Positions 29,786 through 56,181 of a stretch of DNA of 64,000 nucleotides are shown here, one piece after another. Each line of letters opens with the position of its first letter. The stretch's first letter is position 1. The DNA is taken from NCBI GenBank assembly GCA_002897915.1, contig BDTS01000055.1, positions 23,479 to 87,478 on the forward strand. Reading direction: 5' to 3'. Under the pieces are notes generated by a model. The model was given only the letters and a program-made list of their open reading frames with translations, had not been told where the DNA came from and did no database searches. Both the position numbers and the translations under genes were made by a program. The DNA is from a bacterium BMS3Bbin09. GTDB taxonomy: Bacteria > Nitrospirota > Thermodesulfovibrionia > UBA6902.

Positions 29786-30688
29786 ATGAAAAAACTTTTC
29801 TATTCTGTAATTTTATTATCCTTCACAGCAGCTTTACTTACAGGTTGCCTTGGGGGCAAAGATTCAGACAGTCCCGTTATAGCAAAAGTCAATAACGATG
29901 TGGTTACACAGGAGGATTTTCTCAAGGAGATCAGCCGTGTGCCTGAATGGGCAAGAGGACAGTTCGAGGGGCAGGAAGGCAAAGATAAGTTCCTTGATGA
30001 GATCATCAAAAGAGAACTGATCTACCAGAATGCACTGGATATGAAACTGGATAACGACGAAGAATATATTGCAAAGGTTGAAGAATTCAAAAAAATGACC
30101 CTGATCTCGCTTCTCCTGCAGAAAGAAGTCGAAGAAAAGGCAACTGTATCCGAGGCTGAAATAAAAGACTTTTTTGATAAAAATGAGGAGAAGTTCAGGA
30201 TCGGTACAGAGATCAAGGCAAGCCATATATTGGTAGAAACAGAAAAAAAGGCAAAAGACATCATCAACAAGATCAACAACGGAGAAAAGTTCGCCAAGCT
30301 GGCCAAAAAATATTCAAAAGACAAGGGCTCTGCAGAAAAAGGCGGGGATCTGGGCTACTTCGGCAGGGGCAAGATGGTCCCTGAATTCGAACGCGCGGCA
30401 CTGAGCCTTAAAAAAGGAGAATTAAGCGCTCCTGTAAAAACTCGTTTCGGATTTCATATTATAAAGCTCATTGATATAAAGGAAGGGGAACCGGCCAATT
30501 TTGAGCAGTCAAAGGGATCTATCCAGAAACAGCTCATCTCCTTAAAACGGAAGCAGCTCTTCGATACATACATTGAAAGCCTCAAAAGCACGGGCAAAAT
30601 AGAAAAGAACGAGGAATTACTTAAGTCCATAGTGCTTCCCTGGGAAAAAGCGGTAGCACCGGCACCTGAGCCGGCGCCAGCTAAATAA
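29786..30688 (+). CDS. Parvulin-type peptidyl-prolyl cis-trans isomerase lipoprotein (PrsA/SurA-like)
   Basis: It has a lipobox (LLTGCLGG) and a PpiC domain (SHILV...GGDLGYFGRGKMVPEFE...FGFHIIKL). Confidence 0.8.
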   Translation: MKKLFYSVILLSFTAALLTGCLGGKDSDSPVIAKVNNDVVTQEDFLKEISRVPEWARGQFEGQEGKDKFLDEIIKRELIYQNALDMKLDNDEEYIAKVEEFKKMTLISLLLQKEVEEKATVSEAEIKDFFDKNEEKFRIGTEIKASHILVETEKKAKDIINKINNGEKFAKLAKKYSKDKGSAEKGGDLGYFGRGKMVPEFERAALSLKKGELSAPVKTRFGFHIIKLIDIKEGEPANFEQSKGSIQKQLISLKRKQLFDTYIESLKSTGKIEKNEELLKSIVLPWEKAVAPAPEPAPAK

Positions 30689-30710
30689 GCATCAGTTATA
30701 ACAAATTAAA

Positions 30711-30740
30711 AGGGCCCCGCAATGCGGGGCCCTTTTTTAA
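30711..30740 (+). terminator. Rho-independent terminator downstream of the PpiC gene
   Basis: The stem GGGCCCCGC / GCGGGGCCC with loop AAT is followed by TTTTTT. Confidence 0.75.
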
Positions 30741-30763
30741 TATAAGTCTCATTGAAGCGGATG

Positions 30764-31030
30764 CTATGCACCGCTTAATTCGGCTTTATAAATGTCGCAA
30801 GCATTCGTTTGATTTCTATGACAACGCTTATAAGGTTGCCATAATCTGTTTGACTCAGCATTTCGAGATCCTTTATAAGCAATATTAGTAGGGATTGAAG
30901 CAGCGGCACGCCGAATCTGACTTGTCAGACCATGTAATTCGTTTTTCGGAAAAGAGGTTGTTACATGATATACTTCCCTAGTTAATTTGTGTGCTTTTAC
31001 CCACACTTTGAGTTGTTTGAAATCTTTCAA
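30764..31030 (-). pseudogene. Four-helix-bundle protein (23S rRNA IVS / Avd-like family) disrupted by an internal deletion plus frameshift
   Basis: The N-terminal 52 aa (MKDFKQLKVWVKAHKLTREVYHVTTSFPKNELHGLTSQIRRAAASIPTNIA) match the family. The family C-terminus (DLEMLSQTDYGNLISVVIEIKRMLATFIKPN) is readable only in the +1 frame after a ~17-codon gap. The start is TTG. Confidence 0.65.
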
Positions 31031-31616
31031 TATTCGCCCGGTTTATTCTTTTGCTGAACGCTGACAGCTGAAAACTGATAGCTTTTAGAAATGCCTGGTT
31101 CTGCGTAGAGGCAGATACCCTTTTCTTCAATGCCAGATATGTGAGATAGTCTTTCACATCAGCGGAATCCATACTAATAGCATCCGCCTGTTTCACCTTC
31201 ACATCCTTTATGTAATCAAAAAAACATTTCAACCAATATGTATATGTTTGTTCAGTCCTGTACGAATAATGCCTTATACGAATCGCCTCTCGCACCTTAT
31301 CAATCAGGCTTTTGATATCATGCCGAGAACATACCGCTTTAACGTTCCTATTGTTGTTAATTGCAGGATCAACATGATTGAAATACAAACGAACAGCATC
31401 ATGCGCCTGTCTTATTTGCCAATCAGCTATTTTGTTTTGAGTCGCAAGATAATTGATGAACTTTTCCACTTGCAAAGCTTGATTTAACTCCTTGTTATTA
31501 TTAGAAAAAGCCAAGAATTTACTTGCCCAATTAGCGTAATATGTGATATATTTCTCTTGGACAAGGCACTTGGTACGCAAATACTTCTGATAATCAGGTA
31601 ACAAGTCGTTATTCAT
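30978..31616 (-). pseudogene. Tyrosine recombinase fragment: two tandem N-terminal SAM-like/core-binding domains, with the catalytic domain missing
   Basis: The second domain (IRHYSYRTEQTYTYWLKCFFDYI...KRVSASTQNQAFLKAISF) aligns well to the IntI/XerD N-domain (HYSxRTEQxYxxW...KVSxSTxxQA). No R..HxxR..Y catalytic domain follows; the ORF runs into the four-helix-bundle pseudogene. Confidence 0.6.
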
Positions 31617-31668
31617 GATTCATTTTCTGAAAATAACAATAATACCTTAAAATGTCGATTCTACCTAT

Positions 31669-31721
31669 CGTATAGCGTTTTATCCATAATGACTCCGTCA
31701 CTACGGATAAAACGCTATACG
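31669..31721. repeat. Perfect 17-bp inverted repeat CGTATAGCGTTTTATCC / GGATAAAACGCTATACG with a 19-nt spacer
   Basis: Read directly from the sequence. It lies between the recombinase fragment and the antitoxin gene, and has no canonical attC R'/R'' boxes. Confidence 0.85.
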
Positions 31722-31807
31722 TTCTGTCTATGAAATATAAATATCTTGCATAAATGTACTGTAAATAGCATATTATAAATAAAGCTATTAATAGCGAGGA
31801 GTTATTT

Positions 31808-32035
31808 ATGATAAAAACAGATGAGCTAATTTCGGAAGCAGTATCATTACCTGTTGAGACTAGGATAATGTTAGTGAATAAACTTCTTGAAAGCCTGAAT
31901 CCATCAAAGAAAGACATTGATGATTTATGGGCTAAGGAAGCAGAGGAAAGAATTGCAGACTTTAGAAGTGGAAGGGAAAAAGCAATTCCAGGGGAAGCAG
32001 TTTTTAAAGAGATTCGAGAAAAATACAATAAATGA
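31808..32035 (+). CDS. Type II antitoxin, putative addiction-module component (TIGR02574-like)
   Basis: 75 aa (MIKTDELISEAVSLPVETRIMLVNKLLESLNP...DDLWAKEAEERIADFRSG) match the family signature. The stop overlaps the toxin start (ATGA). Confidence 0.7.
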   Translation: MIKTDELISEAVSLPVETRIMLVNKLLESLNPSKKDIDDLWAKEAEERIADFRSGREKAIPGEAVFKEIREKYNK

Positions 32036-32167
32036 AATATTCTTTTCATCCTCTGGCCAGACAAGAGTTGATTGATGCAATTGATTACTACAATGAGTGC
32101 CAAGATGAATTAGGTCTGAAATTCGCAGAAGAAGTTTATAAAGCTATCCAACTTATTCTACAGTTTC
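32032..32167 (+). pseudogene. ParE/RelE-family toxin gene, 5' part, interrupted by the IS256-family insertion
   Basis: MKYSFHPLARQELIDAIDYYNECQDELGLKFAEEVYKAIQLILQF is then broken at the insertion site. It continues in frame at 33591 once the IS and one TSD copy are removed. Confidence 0.75.
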
Positions 32168-33590
32168 GAGAATGTCAAGTTTTTAGTTGAAACTGTCTGA
32201 GTGGCTCTCATCTTCATCTCGTATTTTTATGCAGCCTTCCTGTCAATTAATTCTTTGTTCTGCTGAGTTTCGATATTTTTTATAACCTCAGGAATTGAAG
32301 CGTAGCCTTTGATCCGCCTGAACCTTTTTTCACTGTATACAAGAACCGATGCCAGCCAGCGCTGCATCATCCTGCTGTTACGGTACCGCTTGATATTACC
32401 CTCAGCATCTCTCACTATGGAAAACATACTCTCTATAGGATTGGTAGAATGCAGAGTCTTTCTCAGCAAGCCTGGTACTTTAAGCTTGTGAACGGTGAGA
32501 ATCTCTTCTATAGCTTCCATAAGAGAATCAGCTGCCGACTCATTGATGCTGCGCAGCCACTTCTCCATATCCAATAACATCTGACGGGCATCTTCATAAC
32601 TGTTTTGCTCCAAGGCCGTCCTGAATAGACGATGCGCTTTTTTTCGGTACTTTTTTGCCAGATGCCTCTGAATGTTTTTATCTTTATGAATAGTACACCG
32701 CTGGTGAATCAGCTTCTTGCCAAATCGCTTACGCAATGCCTTGATAATTCCCTTGCCTCCATCCGTGATACAGATGATATGCCGGCTCACTTTCAATCCG
32801 CGCCTCTCCATATCCCCAAATAGCTCTTCACATATCTCATGATTCTCCGTCGCTCCCTGCCAGAATCCCAATACCTTCTTTATTCCTTCTGTATCAATCC
32901 CCAGTCCGATTATGAATGCCTCCCCTCCACGATGGATCGTATCAAGAAATATCGCAAAAGGTTTATATTCCGATAATGACCGCTCCTTAAATTCCCGCAG
33001 CTGCTTTGCCGTTGCCTCAACTATATGCCTGGATACTGATCCGGCTGACACTCCAAATGCCCCTGCCGCATCCACCACCGTCTCTGCATACTTCCGGCAT
33101 GATATTCCTCTCAATACCTTATTCAGAAGCTCCTGTGAAAACTGCTCCCGTTCCTTCAGCTTTCTGTAACTCCTTAACTCTATCTCCCCCTCTGGCCCTC
33201 GAAGGCGCGGGTGCTGCACCCTTATCTTCTGATCTCCTATATAGACTGATCCGGGCTGGCTTGCCCACTTATATACATCAGGACTCAATGGCTGATATTC
33301 AGGTCCTGCAATCTCCTCCCGCTCTATATACATGATCGTCTCTGCCATCATCCTTCCAATTCCCTTCATGTATACATCAAATCCGGCTTTGCCCTTTGCA
33401 TATATTTCATACATCTGCTCCAGTATCTCCTGTTTACCCAATGCTTCTTCCATCCCTCTTGTTGCTTTTTTTCTCTTCTTTGTGCTTTTCTTCATTAGTG
33501 GCTCCTCCTTTTTAAGGATATTGGTTACCCGTGGATTATATCCACGGGGGAGCCACTCTTTCAACTTTCAACTAAGAATAGTATATCCTC
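32168..33590 (-). mobile_element. IS256 (Mutator) family insertion sequence, 1423 bp, with ~40-bp imperfect terminal inverted repeats and an 8-bp target-site duplication ACAGTTTC
   Basis: The TSD copies are at 32160-32167 and 33591-33598. The ends read GAGAATGTCAAGTTTTTAGTTGAAACTGTCTGAGTGGCTC and, reverse-complemented, GAGGATATACTATTCTTAGTTGAAAGTTGAAAGAGTGGCTC. It carries a single transposase ORF. Confidence 0.8.
32227..33495 (-). CDS. IS256-family (mutator-type) DDE transposase
   Basis: Family motifs are present (LDTIH, ITDGGKGI, HQRCTIHKDKN, HSTNPIESMFSIVR). The start is taken at MKKSTKKRKK; the longer ORF would read through the right inverted repeat. Confidence 0.8.
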   Translation of the reverse strand: MKKSTKKRKKATRGMEEALGKQEILEQMYEIYAKGKAGFDVYMKGIGRMMAETIMYIEREEIAGPEYQPLSPDVYKWASQPGSVYIGDQKIRVQHPRLRGPEGEIELRSYRKLKEREQFSQELLNKVLRGISCRKYAETVVDAAGAFGVSAGSVSRHIVEATAKQLREFKERSLSEYKPFAIFLDTIHRGGEAFIIGLGIDTEGIKKVLGFWQGATENHEICEELFGDMERRGLKVSRHIICITDGGKGIIKALRKRFGKKLIHQRCTIHKDKNIQRHLAKKYRKKAHRLFRTALEQNSYEDARQMLLDMEKWLRSINESAADSLMEAIEEILTVHKLKVPGLLRKTLHSTNPIESMFSIVRDAEGNIKRYRNSRMMQRWLASVLVYSEKRFRRIKGYASIPEVIKNIETQQNKELIDRKAA

Positions 33591-33756
33591 ACAGTTTCCT
33601 CAAGCTTGGTCCCCCTTTTCAAAAAACACCCGACGATGCATAATGAATAGATTCCCGTACGGAATTATTTATCAAGAAATAAAAGATAATATTTTAATAA
33701 TTGCAGTCATGCAATTAAATAAAGAACCCATTTATTGGCATAAGAGAGTGAAATAG
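33591..33756 (+). pseudogene. ParE/RelE-family toxin gene, 3' part, downstream of the IS
   Basis: It reads PQAWSPFSKNTRRCIMNRFPYGIIYQEIKDNILIIAVMQLNKEPIYWHKRVK*. Joined to the 5' part it gives a ~97-aa RelE/ParE-like protein. Confidence 0.75.
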
Positions 33757-33775
33757 AGCAGCACAGAACAATTCA

Positions 33776-34429
33776 TTGGTCTCGAATGCAAGCCAGCGGA
33801 AGCTTTTTTTGCTTCCATTATTTTTTTATGTTCAAATCAGTTTTCAGCATGTTATTATTCTCAAGGGCTTGCATCGGACAATTCATCGTTGGTTAAGCCA
33901 GAACGGCTGGGCATCGGGCTTAAATACAGGAGGAACATTGACATATAATCTGAATGCCGGATTAAGCATGGATTGGGGCACAAATTTATGGAGACTGCCA
34001 ACAGTAACGGACACAGGGAATGATGGATGTAACTTTGGCTACAGTGGAACAGATTGTGGCTATAATATAGACACAAGCACGGGAGAGATGGCACATCTGT
34101 GGTTTGATGAGCTGGGTAATCTGGCATATTACGACACATTAGGCAACGAAAATCAAGACGGCTGGGGTCTGACAAACACCGGAAATTTTCAGAATCTGCA
34201 GGCCGGCTACTATTGGTCTGATACTGAGTATTCTCCCGATCCTACGCTCGCGTGGGACTTCAGTACGAGCTACGGCCACAAGGGCGTCCCCAGCAAGTAC
34301 TTTCAAGAGCAAGGTATAGCCGTTCGATCCGGACAACTCGCCGTTGCCCCGGAGCCGGTATCGACAGTATTATTCCTGATCGGCGGAGTATTGCTTGCAG
34401 GACGAATGAGATACAGACAGCGTAATTAG
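33776..34429 (+). CDS. PEP-CTERM sorting-domain protein (possible DUF1566/Lcl-like region); the 5' end is probably frameshifted
   Basis: The C-terminus is APEPVSTVLFLIGGVLLAGRMRYRQRN (PEP motif, TM, basic tail). The ORF starts with TTG and has no signal peptide. A signal-like peptide (MFKSVFSMLLFSRACIGQFIVG) is encoded from ATG 33828 in another frame and stops at 33896. Confidence 0.55.
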   Translation: MVSNASQRKLFLLPLFFYVQISFQHVIILKGLHRTIHRWLSQNGWASGLNTGGTLTYNLNAGLSMDWGTNLWRLPTVTDTGNDGCNFGYSGTDCGYNIDTSTGEMAHLWFDELGNLAYYDTLGNENQDGWGLTNTGNFQNLQAGYYWSDTEYSPDPTLAWDFSTSYGHKGVPSKYFQEQGIAVRSGQLAVAPEPVSTVLFLIGGVLLAGRMRYRQRN

Positions 34430-34814
34430 CCCTTTGGTGACTTGAATAATTTGGTACTTTGTCTTTCGGGGTTTGCAGGGAGTATCCCCCTGCTTCCCGA
34501 GATTAAGGAAGAAAAAATCCCATTGAAAGCTATTGAAAAACCTCGTAGTAGTAGCTCCTGAAATATCACATCATATTTATTGCCAGCAAATATAAAAAAG
34601 ACAAAAGATAAAGAATAGTTTATTCTTTAAAGTGCCTCTGAATTTGTTAACAGTTTGGTGCTAATCTGCATATAACAATTTGATGCACAAGAATGCAGAA
34701 CCTCAATCATCAAATTGACCTTTAATATTTTATGATGTGTAAATTGTTTTCTGAGCAAGAAAGTACGCTTCTGGTTCTGCATCTATGATCAAGACGTTAA
34801 AACTCCAAATAGAT

Positions 34815-34842
34815 ATTGACAATAGGTATAATTAAGGTATAA
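34815..34842 (+). promoter_or_regulatory. Consensus sigma70-like promoter TTGACA-16-TATAAT upstream of brnT
   Basis: TTGACA at 34815-34820 and TATAAT at 34837-34842, with the brnT ATG at 34855. Confidence 0.5.
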
Positions 34843-34854
34843 TAATTATATATT

Positions 34855-35115
34855 ATGAATTTTGAATTTGATGATAATAAAAGCAACACCAATAAAAAGA
34901 AACATAAGATTAATTTCAATGAAGCCCAGGAATTATGGGATGATCCTGATTTAATTGAAATTCCTATTATATCAAGTGATGAGTCACGATATTTAGTAAT
35001 TGGAAAAATATCAGGGAAACATTGGTCAGGCATTATTACTTATAGAGAAGAAATAATAAGGATTATATCTGTTAGGCGTTCCAGGAAAGAGGAGGTTGAT
35101 ATATATGAAAGCTAA
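34855..35115 (+). CDS. brnT: BrnT-family toxin (DUF497 ribonuclease)
   Basis: 86 aa with family motifs (FEFDDNKSNTNKKKHKINFNEAQELWDDP...RIISVRRSRKEE). Confidence 0.75.
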   Translation: MNFEFDDNKSNTNKKKHKINFNEAQELWDDPDLIEIPIISSDESRYLVIGKISGKHWSGIITYREEIIRIISVRRSRKEEVDIYES

Positions 35116-35329
35116 AGACATTGACAAGAAATTTGATGAAGGCAAGGATATTTCGAAACATCTTGACCTTTCAAAAGCCAGAAGACCTGAGCAGGAACAA
35201 AAAAGGGTTAATGTAGACTTCCCCTTATGGATGATCCAACAATTGGACAGAGAAGCAAAACGTTTGGGTGTGCCTCGTCAATCTATCATTAAGGTTTGGG
35301 TAGCAGAGCGTCTTGAAAGAGCATCTTAA
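35096..35329 (+). CDS. brnA: BrnA-family antitoxin (ribbon-helix-helix / CopG-like C-terminus)
   Basis: The start overlaps brnT. The C-terminal segment VNVDFPLWMIQQLDREAKRLGVPRQSIIKVWVAERL is typical. Confidence 0.7.
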   Translation: MIYMKAKDIDKKFDEGKDISKHLDLSKARRPEQEQKRVNVDFPLWMIQQLDREAKRLGVPRQSIIKVWVAERLERAS

Positions 35330-35399
35330 ATAATGTTCTAACAAGTCACTTAAGAGGAGGCTCTAAAGCTGGCGCTTTTGCGCACCCCTCATTTCGGCG

Positions 35400-37091
35400 T
35401 TAGACACTTTTTAAATATTCCAGCACCTTTGAAGGGGCGAGCCTGTCCGTCTCTTTTGTCTTTCTTGATTTAACCTCGACCACTCCTTCTTTGAGACCCT
35501 TTTTGCCGATAACCACCTGCCACGGTATCCCGAGCAGGTCGGCATCCTTGAATTTAACGCCGGGCCTCTCGTCCCGATCATCCATGAGCACATCGATACC
35601 CGCATTGATCAGGTCATTATATAGTGTATCGGCTATGCTCAGGACATCATCTTCGGAGCCAAGCGGAATGATCTCTACATCAAATGGTGAGATACTCGAT
35701 GGCCATATTATTCCATCCTTGTCATTGTTCTGCTCGATAGCAGCCGCAGCTATACGAGCAGGACCGATGCCGTAGCTCCCCATTATGATAGTCTCTTCTT
35801 TTCCATTCTCGTCCAGGTACACAGCCTTAAGCGGTTTGGAATATTTTGTGCCGAGCTTAAAAATATTGCCGATCTCTATTACATTTTCAGCTGTTAACGG
35901 ACCGCCGCACTTTGAACAGGTGTCCCCCTGCCCCGCAATATGGATGTCATGCCATTCGGCCGTAAAATGCTCGCCCGGTTTGATGCCCCTTGTATGAAAA
36001 CCTGCTTTGTTCGCGCCTGCAATATAGACACCTTCTTTCAATGATACGTCTGCAATGATCTTAATGTCCCTGTTATTGGGACCGATAAAACCAGCCTCGA
36101 CACAAAGTATCTCTTTGACCTCGTCTTTTTGCGCGGGTCTGAATTCACCCGTTATCCTTTGCAGCTTCTTTTCATGGAGCTCCTGGTCACCCCTCACCAA
36201 GGCGAGAAATGGCCCGTCATCGCCAATCAATAAAAGACTCTTTATAAAACATGACGGGGCCTCTTTCAAAAAGTTCGAGACCTCGGCGACCGTCCTTTTT
36301 TCGGGTGTTTCAACATCTTCCATTTCATTTTGTACGGGCACGGCATGTCGTGCCCCTACTATTTGTTGGGACGGGACTGATAGCGCCAACTCAACGTTTG
36401 CTGAATAGCCGCACTTATCACAAAGCACAACAGTATCTTCACCAGCGGGGCTTGGCGCCATAAACTCATGCGCAGTTGCACCACCCATCATTCCGGGGTC
36501 GCTTTCAACCTGAAGAAATTTCAGACCGCATCTTTCGAATATTTTATGGTAGGCCCCTGCATGTTTCTGATAATTTATTTCGAGACCGGCCTCGTCCCTG
36601 TCAAAGCTGTAACTGTCTTTCATCGTGAACTCACGCGTCCTCAATATCCCGCTCTTTGGTCTGGCCTCGTCTCTGAACTTTGTCTGTATCTGATACCAGG
36701 TCTGCGGCAGGTCCCTGTAGGAACTTATCTCCATCGATGCAAGCCAGGTAATGATCTCTTCATGGGTCATTCCAAGACACATATCTCTTCCGCCCCTATC
36801 CTTCAGCCTGAACATCTCATCCCCGATCTCGTCCCACCTTCCGGTTTTTTCCCATATCTCGGACGGATGAAGGCAGGGCATCGATATTTCCTGCGCGCCG
36901 ATCGCATTCATTTCTTCCCTGATAATATTGTTTATCTTTTCCATGATCCTTAATGCCAGCGGAAGATAAATATAGAGACCGGCCGCGAGCTGCCTCACAT
37001 AACCGGCACGAACCATCAGTATATGGCTTATGGCCTCGGCATCGGCAGGCGCCTCACGTAATGTTGGAATAAAGATATTCGAAAACCGCAT
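35400..37091 (-). CDS. proS: Proline--tRNA ligase (bacterial type)
   Basis: It has class II aaRS motifs, a ProRS catalytic core and a C-terminal anticodon-binding domain. A palindromic repeat lies in frame at 36332-36362. Confidence 0.95.
   Translation of the reverse strand: MRFSNIFIPTLREAPADAEAISHILMVRAGYVRQLAAGLYIYLPLALRIMEKINNIIREEMNAIGAQEISMPCLHPSEIWEKTGRWDEIGDEMFRLKDRGGRDMCLGMTHEEIITWLASMEISSYRDLPQTWYQIQTKFRDEARPKSGILRTREFTMKDSYSFDRDEAGLEINYQKHAGAYHKIFERCGLKFLQVESDPGMMGGATAHEFMAPSPAGEDTVVLCDKCGYSANVELALSVPSQQIVGARHAVPVQNEMEDVETPEKRTVAEVSNFLKEAPSCFIKSLLLIGDDGPFLALVRGDQELHEKKLQRITGEFRPAQKDEVKEILCVEAGFIGPNNRDIKIIADVSLKEGVYIAGANKAGFHTRGIKPGEHFTAEWHDIHIAGQGDTCSKCGGPLTAENVIEIGNIFKLGTKYSKPLKAVYLDENGKEETIIMGSYGIGPARIAAAAIEQNNDKDGIIWPSSISPFDVEIIPLGSEDDVLSIADTLYNDLINAGIDVLMDDRDERPGVKFKDADLLGIPWQVVIGKKGLKEGVVEVKSRKTKETDRLAPSKVLEYLKSV
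36332..36362. repeat. Copy 2 of the GGGCACGGCATG(C/T)CGTGCCC palindromic element, in frame inside proS (encodes GARHAVP)
   Basis: 28 of 31 nt are identical to 15186-15216 including flanks (GTA.GGGCACGGCATG.CGTGCCCCTACT.T). Confidence 0.85.
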
Positions 37092-55305: not shown

Positions 55306-56181
55306 ATGATAGACCCTGTAGAAAGATTCCTGAATTACCTGACCGTGGAGAAAGGTCTCTCTCCAAATACACTGGATGCCTACAGGCGAGATATCCTCAA
55401 ATTCCGCGAATACCTTAAGGAAAATGGGAGAAAAATAACGAATTTCAAGAAAGATGACCTTGTATCCTTTATAGATAAGCTCCGCAACTCAGGGAACCAG
55501 GCATCGACCCTGGCACGCCATATCGCCTCTCTCAGGGGATTCTGCAAGTTCCTGCTCATAGAGGGGATCATCAAGGAAGACCCTATTGAGAACCTCTCTA
55601 CACCCAAAGGCTGGAAACGCATACCAAAGATCATAGGCATCGAAGAGGTCTCAATCCTGCTGAGCACACCCGGGGGCCAGAAACTTTCCCTGCGGGACAG
55701 GGCAATGCTTGCGACCATCTATTCTTCGGGCCTCAGGGCGAGCGAGGTCGTAAATATAAAAATGGGGGATATAAATTTTGAAGGCGGCTTCCTGAGAGTA
55801 AAGGGTAAGGGCTCGAAAGAACGGGTCGTGCCGATAAACGACGCAGCGATAGGAACTATCGTGAATTATATCGAAGAGTCAAGACCCCAAATATTGAAGA
55901 AAAGAACAAGCGAGTACCTCTTTCTTGCAAAAGGCGGTAAACCGATGACAAGACAGCGGCTCTGGCAGCTGATCAAAAAGTACTCGGCCGGGTTATCAAT
56001 AGAGATATCACCTCACACTCTCAGACACTGCTTTGCGAGCCATCTTCTGGACGGCGGTGCGGACCTGAGGGCCCTTCAAAAAATGCTCGGTCATACCGAT
56101 ATATCAACGACCCAGATATATACCAAGGTCACGCCTGAGAGACTCAGAAAGATCCACAAAGAGCATCACCCGCGGGGATAG
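55306..56181 (+). CDS. xerD: Tyrosine recombinase XerD
   Basis: The N-terminus has LSPNTLDAYRRD and the C-terminus has the R...HTLRH...LGHTDISTTQIYTKV catalytic motifs. It is divergent from mraZ. Confidence 0.75.
   Translation: MIDPVERFLNYLTVEKGLSPNTLDAYRRDILKFREYLKENGRKITNFKKDDLVSFIDKLRNSGNQASTLARHIASLRGFCKFLLIEGIIKEDPIENLSTPKGWKRIPKIIGIEEVSILLSTPGGQKLSLRDRAMLATIYSSGLRASEVVNIKMGDINFEGGFLRVKGKGSKERVVPINDAAIGTIVNYIEESRPQILKKRTSEYLFLAKGGKPMTRQRLWQLIKKYSAGLSIEISPHTLRHCFASHLLDGGADLRALQKMLGHTDISTTQIYTKVTPERLRKIHKEHHPRG

Follow-up and report, generated by a model that had tools for sequence, protein, structure and literature searches.

A probable small, decaying sedentary integron between ppiC and proS of bacterium BMS3Bbin09, with an integrase gene truncated at an S23p element

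The window analysed here is a stretch of 64,000 nt (contig BDTS01000055.1, positions 23,479 to 87,478) from the uncultured bacterium BMS3Bbin09, whose PpiC relatives are annotated as Nitrospirota/Thermodesulfovibrionia. Between its convergent housekeeping genes ppiC and proS lies an island (positions ~30745-35399) that holds the remains of an integron integrase gene (intI), a probable attI region and three gene cassettes bounded by attC sites. With this content the island is read as a small decaying sedentary chromosomal integron, at a probability of roughly 0.85. In the terms of IntegronFinder the locus is a set of clustered attC sites without integron-integrases (CALIN) with an adjacent intI pseudogene, formerly a complete sedentary integron. 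The intI part of the pseudogene ends where a gene of the S23p family begins, and this junction recurs in related loci. The features, in window coordinates, are as follows.

29786-30688, plus strand: ppiC, the left housekeeping neighbour
30708-30736, no strand assigned: bidirectional intrinsic terminator, with perfect 14-nt arms and a terminator-scan match
30740-30791, plus strand: possible, uncertain relic of an attC-like hairpin, the second-best match in the window to covariance model R1 (17.6 bits, E = 0.049)
30764-31030, minus strand: four-helix-bundle pseudogene of the S23p or '23S rRNA intervening-sequence protein' type (PF05635, 61.5 bits; TIGR02436, 51.7 bits)
31031-31089, minus strand: S23p leader, with four heptads (CTATCAG, TTTTCAG, CTGTCAG, CGTTCAG) at 31081-31054
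31090-31616, minus strand: intI pseudogene, comprising the N-terminal 176 codons (N-terminal extension and SAM-like core-binding domain)
31617-31721, no strand assigned: probable attI region, including a 53-nt hairpin at 31669-31721, with the predicted crossover G|TT at 31721|31722
31722-33888, plus strand: cassette 1, with an Unstab_antitox/TIGR02574 antitoxin gene (31808-32035) and parE, then attC1
32032-32167 joined to 33599-33756, plus strand: split parE, with Pfam and NCBIfam matches
32168-33590, minus strand: IS256-family insertion sequence (IS) within parE, with its transposase gene at 32227-33564 (NF033543, 216.6 bits against a cutoff of 150)
33763-33894, plus strand: attC1, rank 1 of 1222 in a palindrome scan (score 24), extrahelical G at position 16
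33889-34796, plus strand: cassette 2, a DUF1566 (Lcl_C)/PEP-CTERM gene fragment truncated at its 5' end, in which homology covers 33890-34429, followed by attC2
34670-34802, plus strand: attC2, rank 2 of 1222 in the same scan (score 23), extrahelical G at position 16
34797-35399, plus strand: cassette 3, consisting of a promoter, brnT, brnA and attC3
34816-34843, plus strand: consensus promoter TTGACA-16-TATAAT, 12/12 match
34855-35115, plus strand: brnT, intact (PF04365, 85.8 bits)
35096-35329, plus strand: brnA, intact (PF12441, 28.4 bits)
35336-35405, plus strand: attC3, the top R1 match in the window (23.9 bits, E = 0.001)
35400-37091, minus strand: proS, the right housekeeping neighbour, convergent with ppiC

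The integrase fragment is encoded by an open reading frame (ORF) of 212 aa (30978-31616, minus strand), in which Pfam recognises two Phage_int_SAM_4 (PF13495) stretches and no catalytic domain, the same features that the original prediction had described for it. Only codons 1-176 are derived from intI, and the frame then continues into the S23p leader as far as 30978. The best NCBIfam match of this ORF is TIGR02249, the integron integrase family (residues 104-185 against profile positions 1-76), so that the profile check proposed at the outset left its reading as a tyrosine recombinase unrefuted. An intact 424-aa relative (L013) scores 409 bits with TIGR02249 against a cutoff of 265, and full-length homologues possess the IntI-specific patch ALERKYPNA..W.WQYVFPS..LS.DPRSGK.RRHH. 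From a scan of GTDB for relatives of the intI fragment 80 loci were kept, and in most of them the two-SAM N-terminus continues without a break into the middle and C-terminal parts of IntI. On this comparison the two tandem SAM-like domains, earlier taken as a sign of decay, are the normal build of this IntI clade, with an N-terminal extension of ~100 aa preceding the usual SAM-like domain. The clade spans Nitrospirota, Thermodesulfobacteriota, Syntrophales and Acidobacteriota.

Downstream of the 176 codons, tblastn detects no homology to the middle or C-terminal part of intI; both the catalytic domain and the IntI patch, which a complete integron would carry, are gone from the locus. The sole other tyrosine recombinase in the window, an XerD-like protein of 291 aa (55306-56181, plus strand) encoded between mraZ and a Lon-like protease gene, is not an IntI. 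Other relatives of this intI have been inactivated by frameshifts and deletions. Several homologues (P0014, P0028 and L101:1139-1440) are frameshifted within the T-rich codons for NALLFLFR, which adjoin the S23p target described below, and their out-of-frame tails can be re-read as native DVL..ELGDL. These frameshifts could reflect either a slippery homopolymer hotspot or assembly error.

IntI recombines the folded bottom strands of attC sites with attI at G|TT, thereby stacking cassettes beside intI. The related locus L005, which contains a divergent toxin-antitoxin (TA) array with seven clear attC sites and IS elements in the same layout as the window, served as a guide to attC architecture in this group: the R'' box occupies positions 1-7 and is followed by a spacer and three stems in turn, the first two separated by an extrahelical base at position 16 and the last two by a second extrahelical base. 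Covariance model R1 was trained on 50 attC sites from arrays beside related intI genes in other organisms only. Its training alignment (A3) used arms trimmed to 30+30 nt, a full-length MAFFT alignment having misaligned the 3' arms, and displays 73 % paired cells against 57 % in shuffles, with a covariation score of 0.40 against 0.17. The model detects 102 attC sites in related loci. Its best match in the window, attC3, lies directly after brnA with the boxes R'' TTCTAAC and R' GTTAGAC, and the TTAGAC of the latter overlaps the proS stop codon. The possible relic hairpin at 30740-30791, lying at the left edge of the island with the ppiC terminator to one side and the end of the S23p pseudogene to the other, has degenerate R boxes (AAG / TTT).

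The other two sites, attC1 and attC2, were identified by a palindrome scan of the plus strand of the whole window, in which an AAC core is paired with a GTT core and the arms are aligned. Across 40 dinucleotide shuffles, matches scoring at least 23 arose at 0.125 per window. Both sites are 132-133 nt long, lie directly after cassette ORFs and have the arm motif AACAAkTTsATG in common; a paralogous array in the same organism (L091) harbours a 131-nt site with the same features in an intergenic gap. Three attC sites are thus present where none of canonical form had been seen originally, and at least two of them lie on one strand within 4 kb, as in an integron or CALIN. Two further approaches were uninformative: a scan for R-box complementarity (AAC/GTT, at least 6/7 matches) was non-specific, with 89 matches per strand, and constrained-fold energies from ViennaRNA did not separate the true attC sites of L005 from false positives. 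The attC1 sequence differs from L001:13198-13328 at 7/132 positions, although these assemblies are 99.3-99.5 % identical, a local excess of variation. In five loci from the same broad IntI group (L064, L068, L070, L087 and L088), attC arrays are placed downstream of intI and share its strand instead of diverging from it, an 'inverted-integrase'-type layout.

All three cassettes are co-oriented, with each ORF followed by its attC, and diverge from intI as in L005. Cassette 1 was correctly predicted to hold an antitoxin/ParE-type pair split by an IS256-family element. Terminal inverted repeats bound the IS, which carries a transposase gene and is flanked by an 8-bp target duplication (ACAGTTTC; 32160-32167 and 33591-33598), in line with the IS256 family, in which the transposase is of DDE Mutator type and duplications measure 8-9 bp; removal of the IS rejoins parE into a gene for 97 aa (PF05016, 37.9 bits). 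Two other assemblies of the same population, L001 and L002 (99.3-99.9 % identical to the window), lack this IS, and the interruption of parE is limited to this strain. The homologues of cassette 2 are DUF1566/PEP-CTERM proteins of 220-250 aa. Alignment with one of these (P0242) begins at its residue 60, corresponding to window position 33890, which is 1 nt past the predicted attC1 crossover (G|TT, 33888|33889), and the missing ~59 N-terminal residues, including the signal peptide, have no match in any frame anywhere in the window. Because the homology starts 1 nt after the crossover and the N-terminus is found in no frame, the gene is regarded as truncated at a recombination junction, by about 59 codons, and not as frameshifted at its 5' end as first supposed. 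Its PEP-CTERM motif is below threshold (PF07589, 14.1 bits against a cutoff of 20.7) and the signal peptide is gone, so that the fragment does not qualify as a PEP-CTERM protein. The brnTA pair of cassette 3 is intact and stands behind a perfect consensus promoter, just as predicted.

With regard to the attI region, the 17-bp perfect inverted repeat reported earlier is real, and forms the core of a hairpin (31669-31721) with 25-nt arms, 92 % complementary, and a 3-nt loop. This hairpin is unique to the locus, and folds as DNA at -19.5 kcal/mol (z = -7.9). It was considered as an attC and rejected, as it has neither extrahelical bases nor an R'' box; it is presumably part of attI, and a Pc promoter may likewise be presumed at the locus. 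Directly beyond the hairpin, TTCTGT at 31722 complements the attC1 R'' box (ACAGAA) exactly, which would be the signature expected of an excised circular cassette. In related loci the attI crossover occurs at ..AATTG|TTAGA, at a comparable distance from the intI start. The array itself ends in G|TTAGAC, matching the right half (TTAGA) of attI in related integrons, and TTAGAC here constitutes the last codon and stop of proS.

A paralogous attI allows a comparison between two samples. L091:3833-4034 and L092:240-482 carry an identical disrupted allele, in which the N-terminal part of intI is joined to S23p (P0002), and diverge exactly after ..AATAATTG|TT (also given as ..GGCAGCCGTCTAATAATTG|TT) into different first cassettes. 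Since the disrupted allele is identical and the first cassettes at the same attI differ, cassette exchange at this site presumably postdates disruption of the integrase and occurred in trans. This is a hint that frozen arrays are still serviced in trans.

Comparison with relatives places the boundaries of the island. In three related lineages, with PpiC identities of 75, 66 and 64 % to that of the window, ppiC and proS are adjacent, convergent and free of any island. One of these loci (L098) has a ppiC-proS gap of 54 nt, consisting of the terminator stem (AAAAGGGCCCCGCAATGCGGGGCCCTTTT) and 10 nt, and in another (L099) the ftsZ-ftsA-ftsQ-ddl cluster lies beyond proS, as in the window. The strong terminator at 30708-30736, correctly recognised in the original prediction and there counted as part of the island, has an identical stem in the empty L098 site and thus belongs to the convergent ppiC/proS pair as the left flank. 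Given adjacent ppiC and proS without an island in relatives, and the same terminator in the L098 gap, the island appears to have been acquired, with insertion between the T-tract of the terminator and the proS stop codon; the synteny check suggested earlier thus leaves the acquired-island reading unrefuted. The G+C content of the island is below that of its flanks, and no flanking direct repeats were found. Neither phage nor conjugation genes appear in the island by ORF list and Pfam scan. No tRNA or tmRNA gene and no Rfam family match was detected in the window, and hence no rRNA.

The element that interrupts intI is a pseudogene in its own right. The junction between intI and S23p falls at 31090|31089, directly after the codons for STQNQA. 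Intact copies of the element have a four-heptad leader (TCAGCNN or TNAGCNN), which pairs with a complementary trailer in a long closing stem, observed in L102 and L005. The window retains the leader only; compared with an intact paralogous copy in L092, its S23p gene has a 92-nt internal deletion and has lost the 3' trailer. S23p proteins of intervening sequence (IVS) type are encoded by a PF05635 ORF within complementary closing termini, an arrangement found here by way of the stem of the intact copies. By location the element departs from IVS, which sit in helices 9, 25 or 45 of 23S rRNA and are cut out by RNase III, as it lies inside intI. The truncated four-helix-bundle gene had been noted in the original prediction under an Avd-like label. 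The gene is there; Avd identity was rejected, with 16.4 bits to the Avd equivalog NF033474 against a cutoff of 80 and an IVS-like leader/trailer stem. Separately, the junction itself (31053-31104, minus strand) is a weak match to the attC model (14.4 bits, E = 0.36), with an R'' of GCAGAAC inside the T-Q-N codons and an R' of GTTCAGC in the last leader heptad, which may be chance or a hint of IntI-like site recognition in targeting.

Essentially the same junction is present in related loci. In the window, L092 (P0002 clade), L005 (P0030/40) and L095 (P0048), intI homology ends, and the S23p leader begins, right after CAG AAY CAG GCN TT; in L102 (P0010) a leader of the same type begins 12 nt further along intI. 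An S23p-type tail occurs in about 13 of ~100 informative close protein clusters. When the N-terminal domains are placed in a neighbour-joining tree, alleles with S23p occupy five separate positions, interspersed with alleles that lack it. The pair L005 and L101, the latter S23p-free, gives a filled and an empty site, with 89 % DNA identity overall and 98 % over the last 50 nt before homology ends exactly at the junction. On the 3' side the junctions vary: intI resumes at EWGWQ.. in L005 and at ..VQELLGH in L102, a deletion runs from within S23p into ..HLL in L095, and nothing of intI is left in the window. Between loci, leader and S23p are more alike than the host intI genes, with 82 % identity for the leader between the window and L092 against 68 % for the N-terminal part of intI.

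Two other routes to this pattern were rejected. Capture of S23p as an ordinary cassette at a secondary G|TT within intI fits neither the junctions, which share no consistent G|TT, nor the intact copies, whose end is a trailer stem and not an attC. Spread by homologous recombination carrying flanking intI sequence is contradicted by L005, which is 98 % identical to S23p-free L101 right up to the junction. The recurrence is therefore read as repeated site-preferring insertion of, or replacement by, an IVS-like element.

From these comparisons we tentatively propose, with confidence somewhat short of even, that IVS-like S23p elements are mobile and prefer the intI codons STQNQA|FNAL at the end of the core-binding domain. 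At least four or five Nitrospirota/Thermodesulfobacteriota-type integron lineages would have lost intI to such elements independently, each time with the catalytic core replaced. On this proposal, intI would be the first protein-coding target described for an element of IVS type, and sedentary integrons would be subject to recurrent, element-driven freezing. Full-text searches found no literature linking integrons to the S23p protein family and, as far as can be told, inactivation of intI at a recurrent site by an S23p/IVS-like element is new.

The distribution of the element beyond intI was also considered. On a GC-rich metagenome contig (L121:1928-2442), an S23p copy flanked by the same kind of heptad leader and trailer is located downstream of a nuoM-like gene, and because of this copy the element type is evidently not confined to intI. 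When metagenomes were scanned for a generic heptad motif (TNAGCNN x4), most of what was recovered were unrelated repeats resembling microsatellites; among the 120 loci the full leader-S23p-trailer element was found only in L121, and intI in none. In seven others (L113, L125, L127, L157, L180, L191 and L203), facing leader and trailer heptad motifs are separated by 60-120 nt with no ORF between them. Such pairs may be S23p derivatives resembling miniature inverted-repeat transposable elements, or unrelated hairpins.

A stronger version of the proposal would have the retained IntI N-terminal protein and S23p form a functional two-gene module, for instance as a DNA-binding regulator or competitor at attI/attC. 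In keeping with this, all five lineages keep the truncated ORF open, the junction type is found in about 13 of ~100 close protein clusters, and within the P0002/3/5/7/9 clade the ORF is intact despite divergence. The divergence since insertion may, however, be too small for stop codons to have built up; the S23p gene of the window is itself a pseudogene, and the differing 3' junctions, together with relatives bearing frameshifts and deletions, look like general decay of intI. We consider such a module unlikely, although it survives better than the remaining alternatives, which concern the island as a whole.

With respect to the island, several observations weigh against the sedentary-integron reading. 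No intact intI was found in the 64-kb window and, with neither the catalytic domain nor the IntI patch surviving, the IntI membership of the window copy rests on N-terminal homology. The attI region is ~80 nt shorter than in relatives, and both its assignment and the role of the hairpin are ones that we infer. Model R1 scores neither attC1 nor attC2 and detects no site in the paralogous array, including the 131-nt L091 site, and folding each attC region as DNA yields energies without significance of their own (z = -0.9 to -1.5). Because of the R1 result, two of the three attC calls rest on palindrome score, family resemblance and the cassette-2 junction. The miss is not due to a length limit, as a 129-nt site in L090 scores 42.6 bits; attC1, attC2 and the L091 site, being long and AT-rich, are divergent from the GC-richer training set.

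These same attC results lend some support to a view of the island as a chance accretion of TA modules, an IS and gene fragments in a permissive gap, with the palindromes being terminators or TA operators. Modules of this kind and IS elements often cluster, attC1 and attC2 go unrecognised by the covariance model, and the fold energies are unremarkable. Accretion leaves too much unexplained to be other than improbable: the two best AAC..GTT palindromes in 64 kb stand exactly behind two cassette ORFs, the homologous part of cassette 2 sets in 1 nt beyond the attC1 G|TT, the intI fragment diverges from the array, and the related locus L005 repeats the layout with 7 clear attC sites.

Somewhat less probable again is the remnant of a non-integron integrative element (a prophage, integrative and conjugative element or genomic island) that was inserted by a tyrosine integrase of phage type and from which most genes have since disappeared. 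The original prediction had left the choice between a sedentary integron-like and an integrative-element remnant, of which the first is retained here. A tyrosine-recombinase fragment does sit at the edge of a block inserted between housekeeping genes, and that block is lower in G+C than its flanks. Against this, a tRNA or tmRNA target is missing, as the original prediction had rightly reported for tRNA, as are flanking direct repeats and the phage or conjugation genes by which such elements are recognised. The fragment fits integron-integrase models best, with intact relatives passing the TIGR02249 cutoff, and the cassettes are bounded by attC. A diversity-generating retroelement remnant (Avd plus target gene) can be all but dismissed, since its case is a distant Avd likeness of the four-helix-bundle gene (faint or weak bAvd matches in relatives; DivGenRetAVD, E = 0.008), set against an Avd equivalog score of 16 bits where 80 is the cutoff, the leader/trailer stem architecture of IVS-type S23p and a window in which ORF list and repeat search reveal neither a reverse transcriptase ORF nor a template/variable repeat pair.

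Under the sedentary-integron reading, the history of the locus may be sketched. The platform could have arrived, as one possibility, when IntI recombined it into a secondary site lying at the stop codon of proS. Going by established integron biology, IntI would once have stacked cassettes next to intI, and TA cassettes would have stabilised the array. Sequence comparison shows that an IVS-like S23p element inserted or was substituted right after ..STQNQA, removing the integrase catalytic domain, that the S23p gene later lost its 92 internal nucleotides along with its 3' stem, and that IS256 split parE in this strain only. The ~59 leading codons of cassette 2 are missing precisely up to the attC1 crossover, a loss for which recombination by IntI of an attC with a secondary site is the most likely cause. 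The array should now be movable only by an integrase supplied in trans.

The island itself is ordinary: it adds a further dying chromosomal integron, of small size, from a phylum that has received little study, and it illustrates that long, AT-rich attC sites can be missed when sequence is read without tools. The wider interest lies with the S23p element. Descriptions of S23p/IVS elements as 'selfish' inserts of 23S rRNA date back to the 1990s, and to our knowledge neither a mobility mechanism nor a function has been established for them. A second, protein-coding target, if true, would provide filled and empty site pairs (L005 and L101) and several independent junctions, making the mechanism of insertion testable. 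Recurrent S23p::intI fusions would equally, if true, represent a specific and repeatable form of intI inactivation that fixes cassette arrays, bearing on the abundance of CALIN and intI pseudogenes.

Among known systems, the closest are sedentary chromosomal integrons and CALIN, for which Cury et al. 2016 (PMC4889954) report IS in 23 % of complete integrons and intI pseudogenes near 15/279 CALIN. The window has in common with these a divergent intI, an attI, co-oriented cassettes with attC (R''/R' and extrahelical bases), TA cassettes with their own promoter and an IS within the array. It differs in being very small (three cassettes), in an IntI with an additional N-terminal SAM-like domain of ~100 aa, in two long AT-rich attC sites (132-133 nt) that R1 does not recognise, and in inactivation of the integrase by an S23p element and not by frameshift or IS.

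The S23p element is most like the 23S rRNA IVS with an S23p ORF described from Coxiella and Leptospira, the complementary termini of which form a long stem (Warrier et al. 2016, PMC4990558). Shared features are a size of ~0.4-0.5 kb, a PF05635 ORF, complementary termini that close a stem, replacement of native sequence at a position that is conserved, within a gene that is conserved too, and a sporadic, polyphyletic distribution. The present element differs in that its host is a protein-coding integrase gene and its termini are heptad repeats (TCAGCNN / TNAGCNN); insertion here destroys the function of the host gene, whereas rRNA tolerates the break.

As for the cargo, the ParE/TIGR02574-antitoxin and BrnT/BrnA pairs resemble type II TA modules in that their family matches pass or reach curated cutoffs and in their usual overlapping two-gene layout; they differ in being carried as cassettes and, for parE, in the interruption restricted to this strain. 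Finally, judged against the preprint of Loot et al. (10.1101/2022.09.11.507474), the truncation of cassette 2 at a crossover and the end of the array in G|TTAGAC at the native proS stop both appear akin to the products of IntI-mediated recombination between attC and secondary genomic sites.

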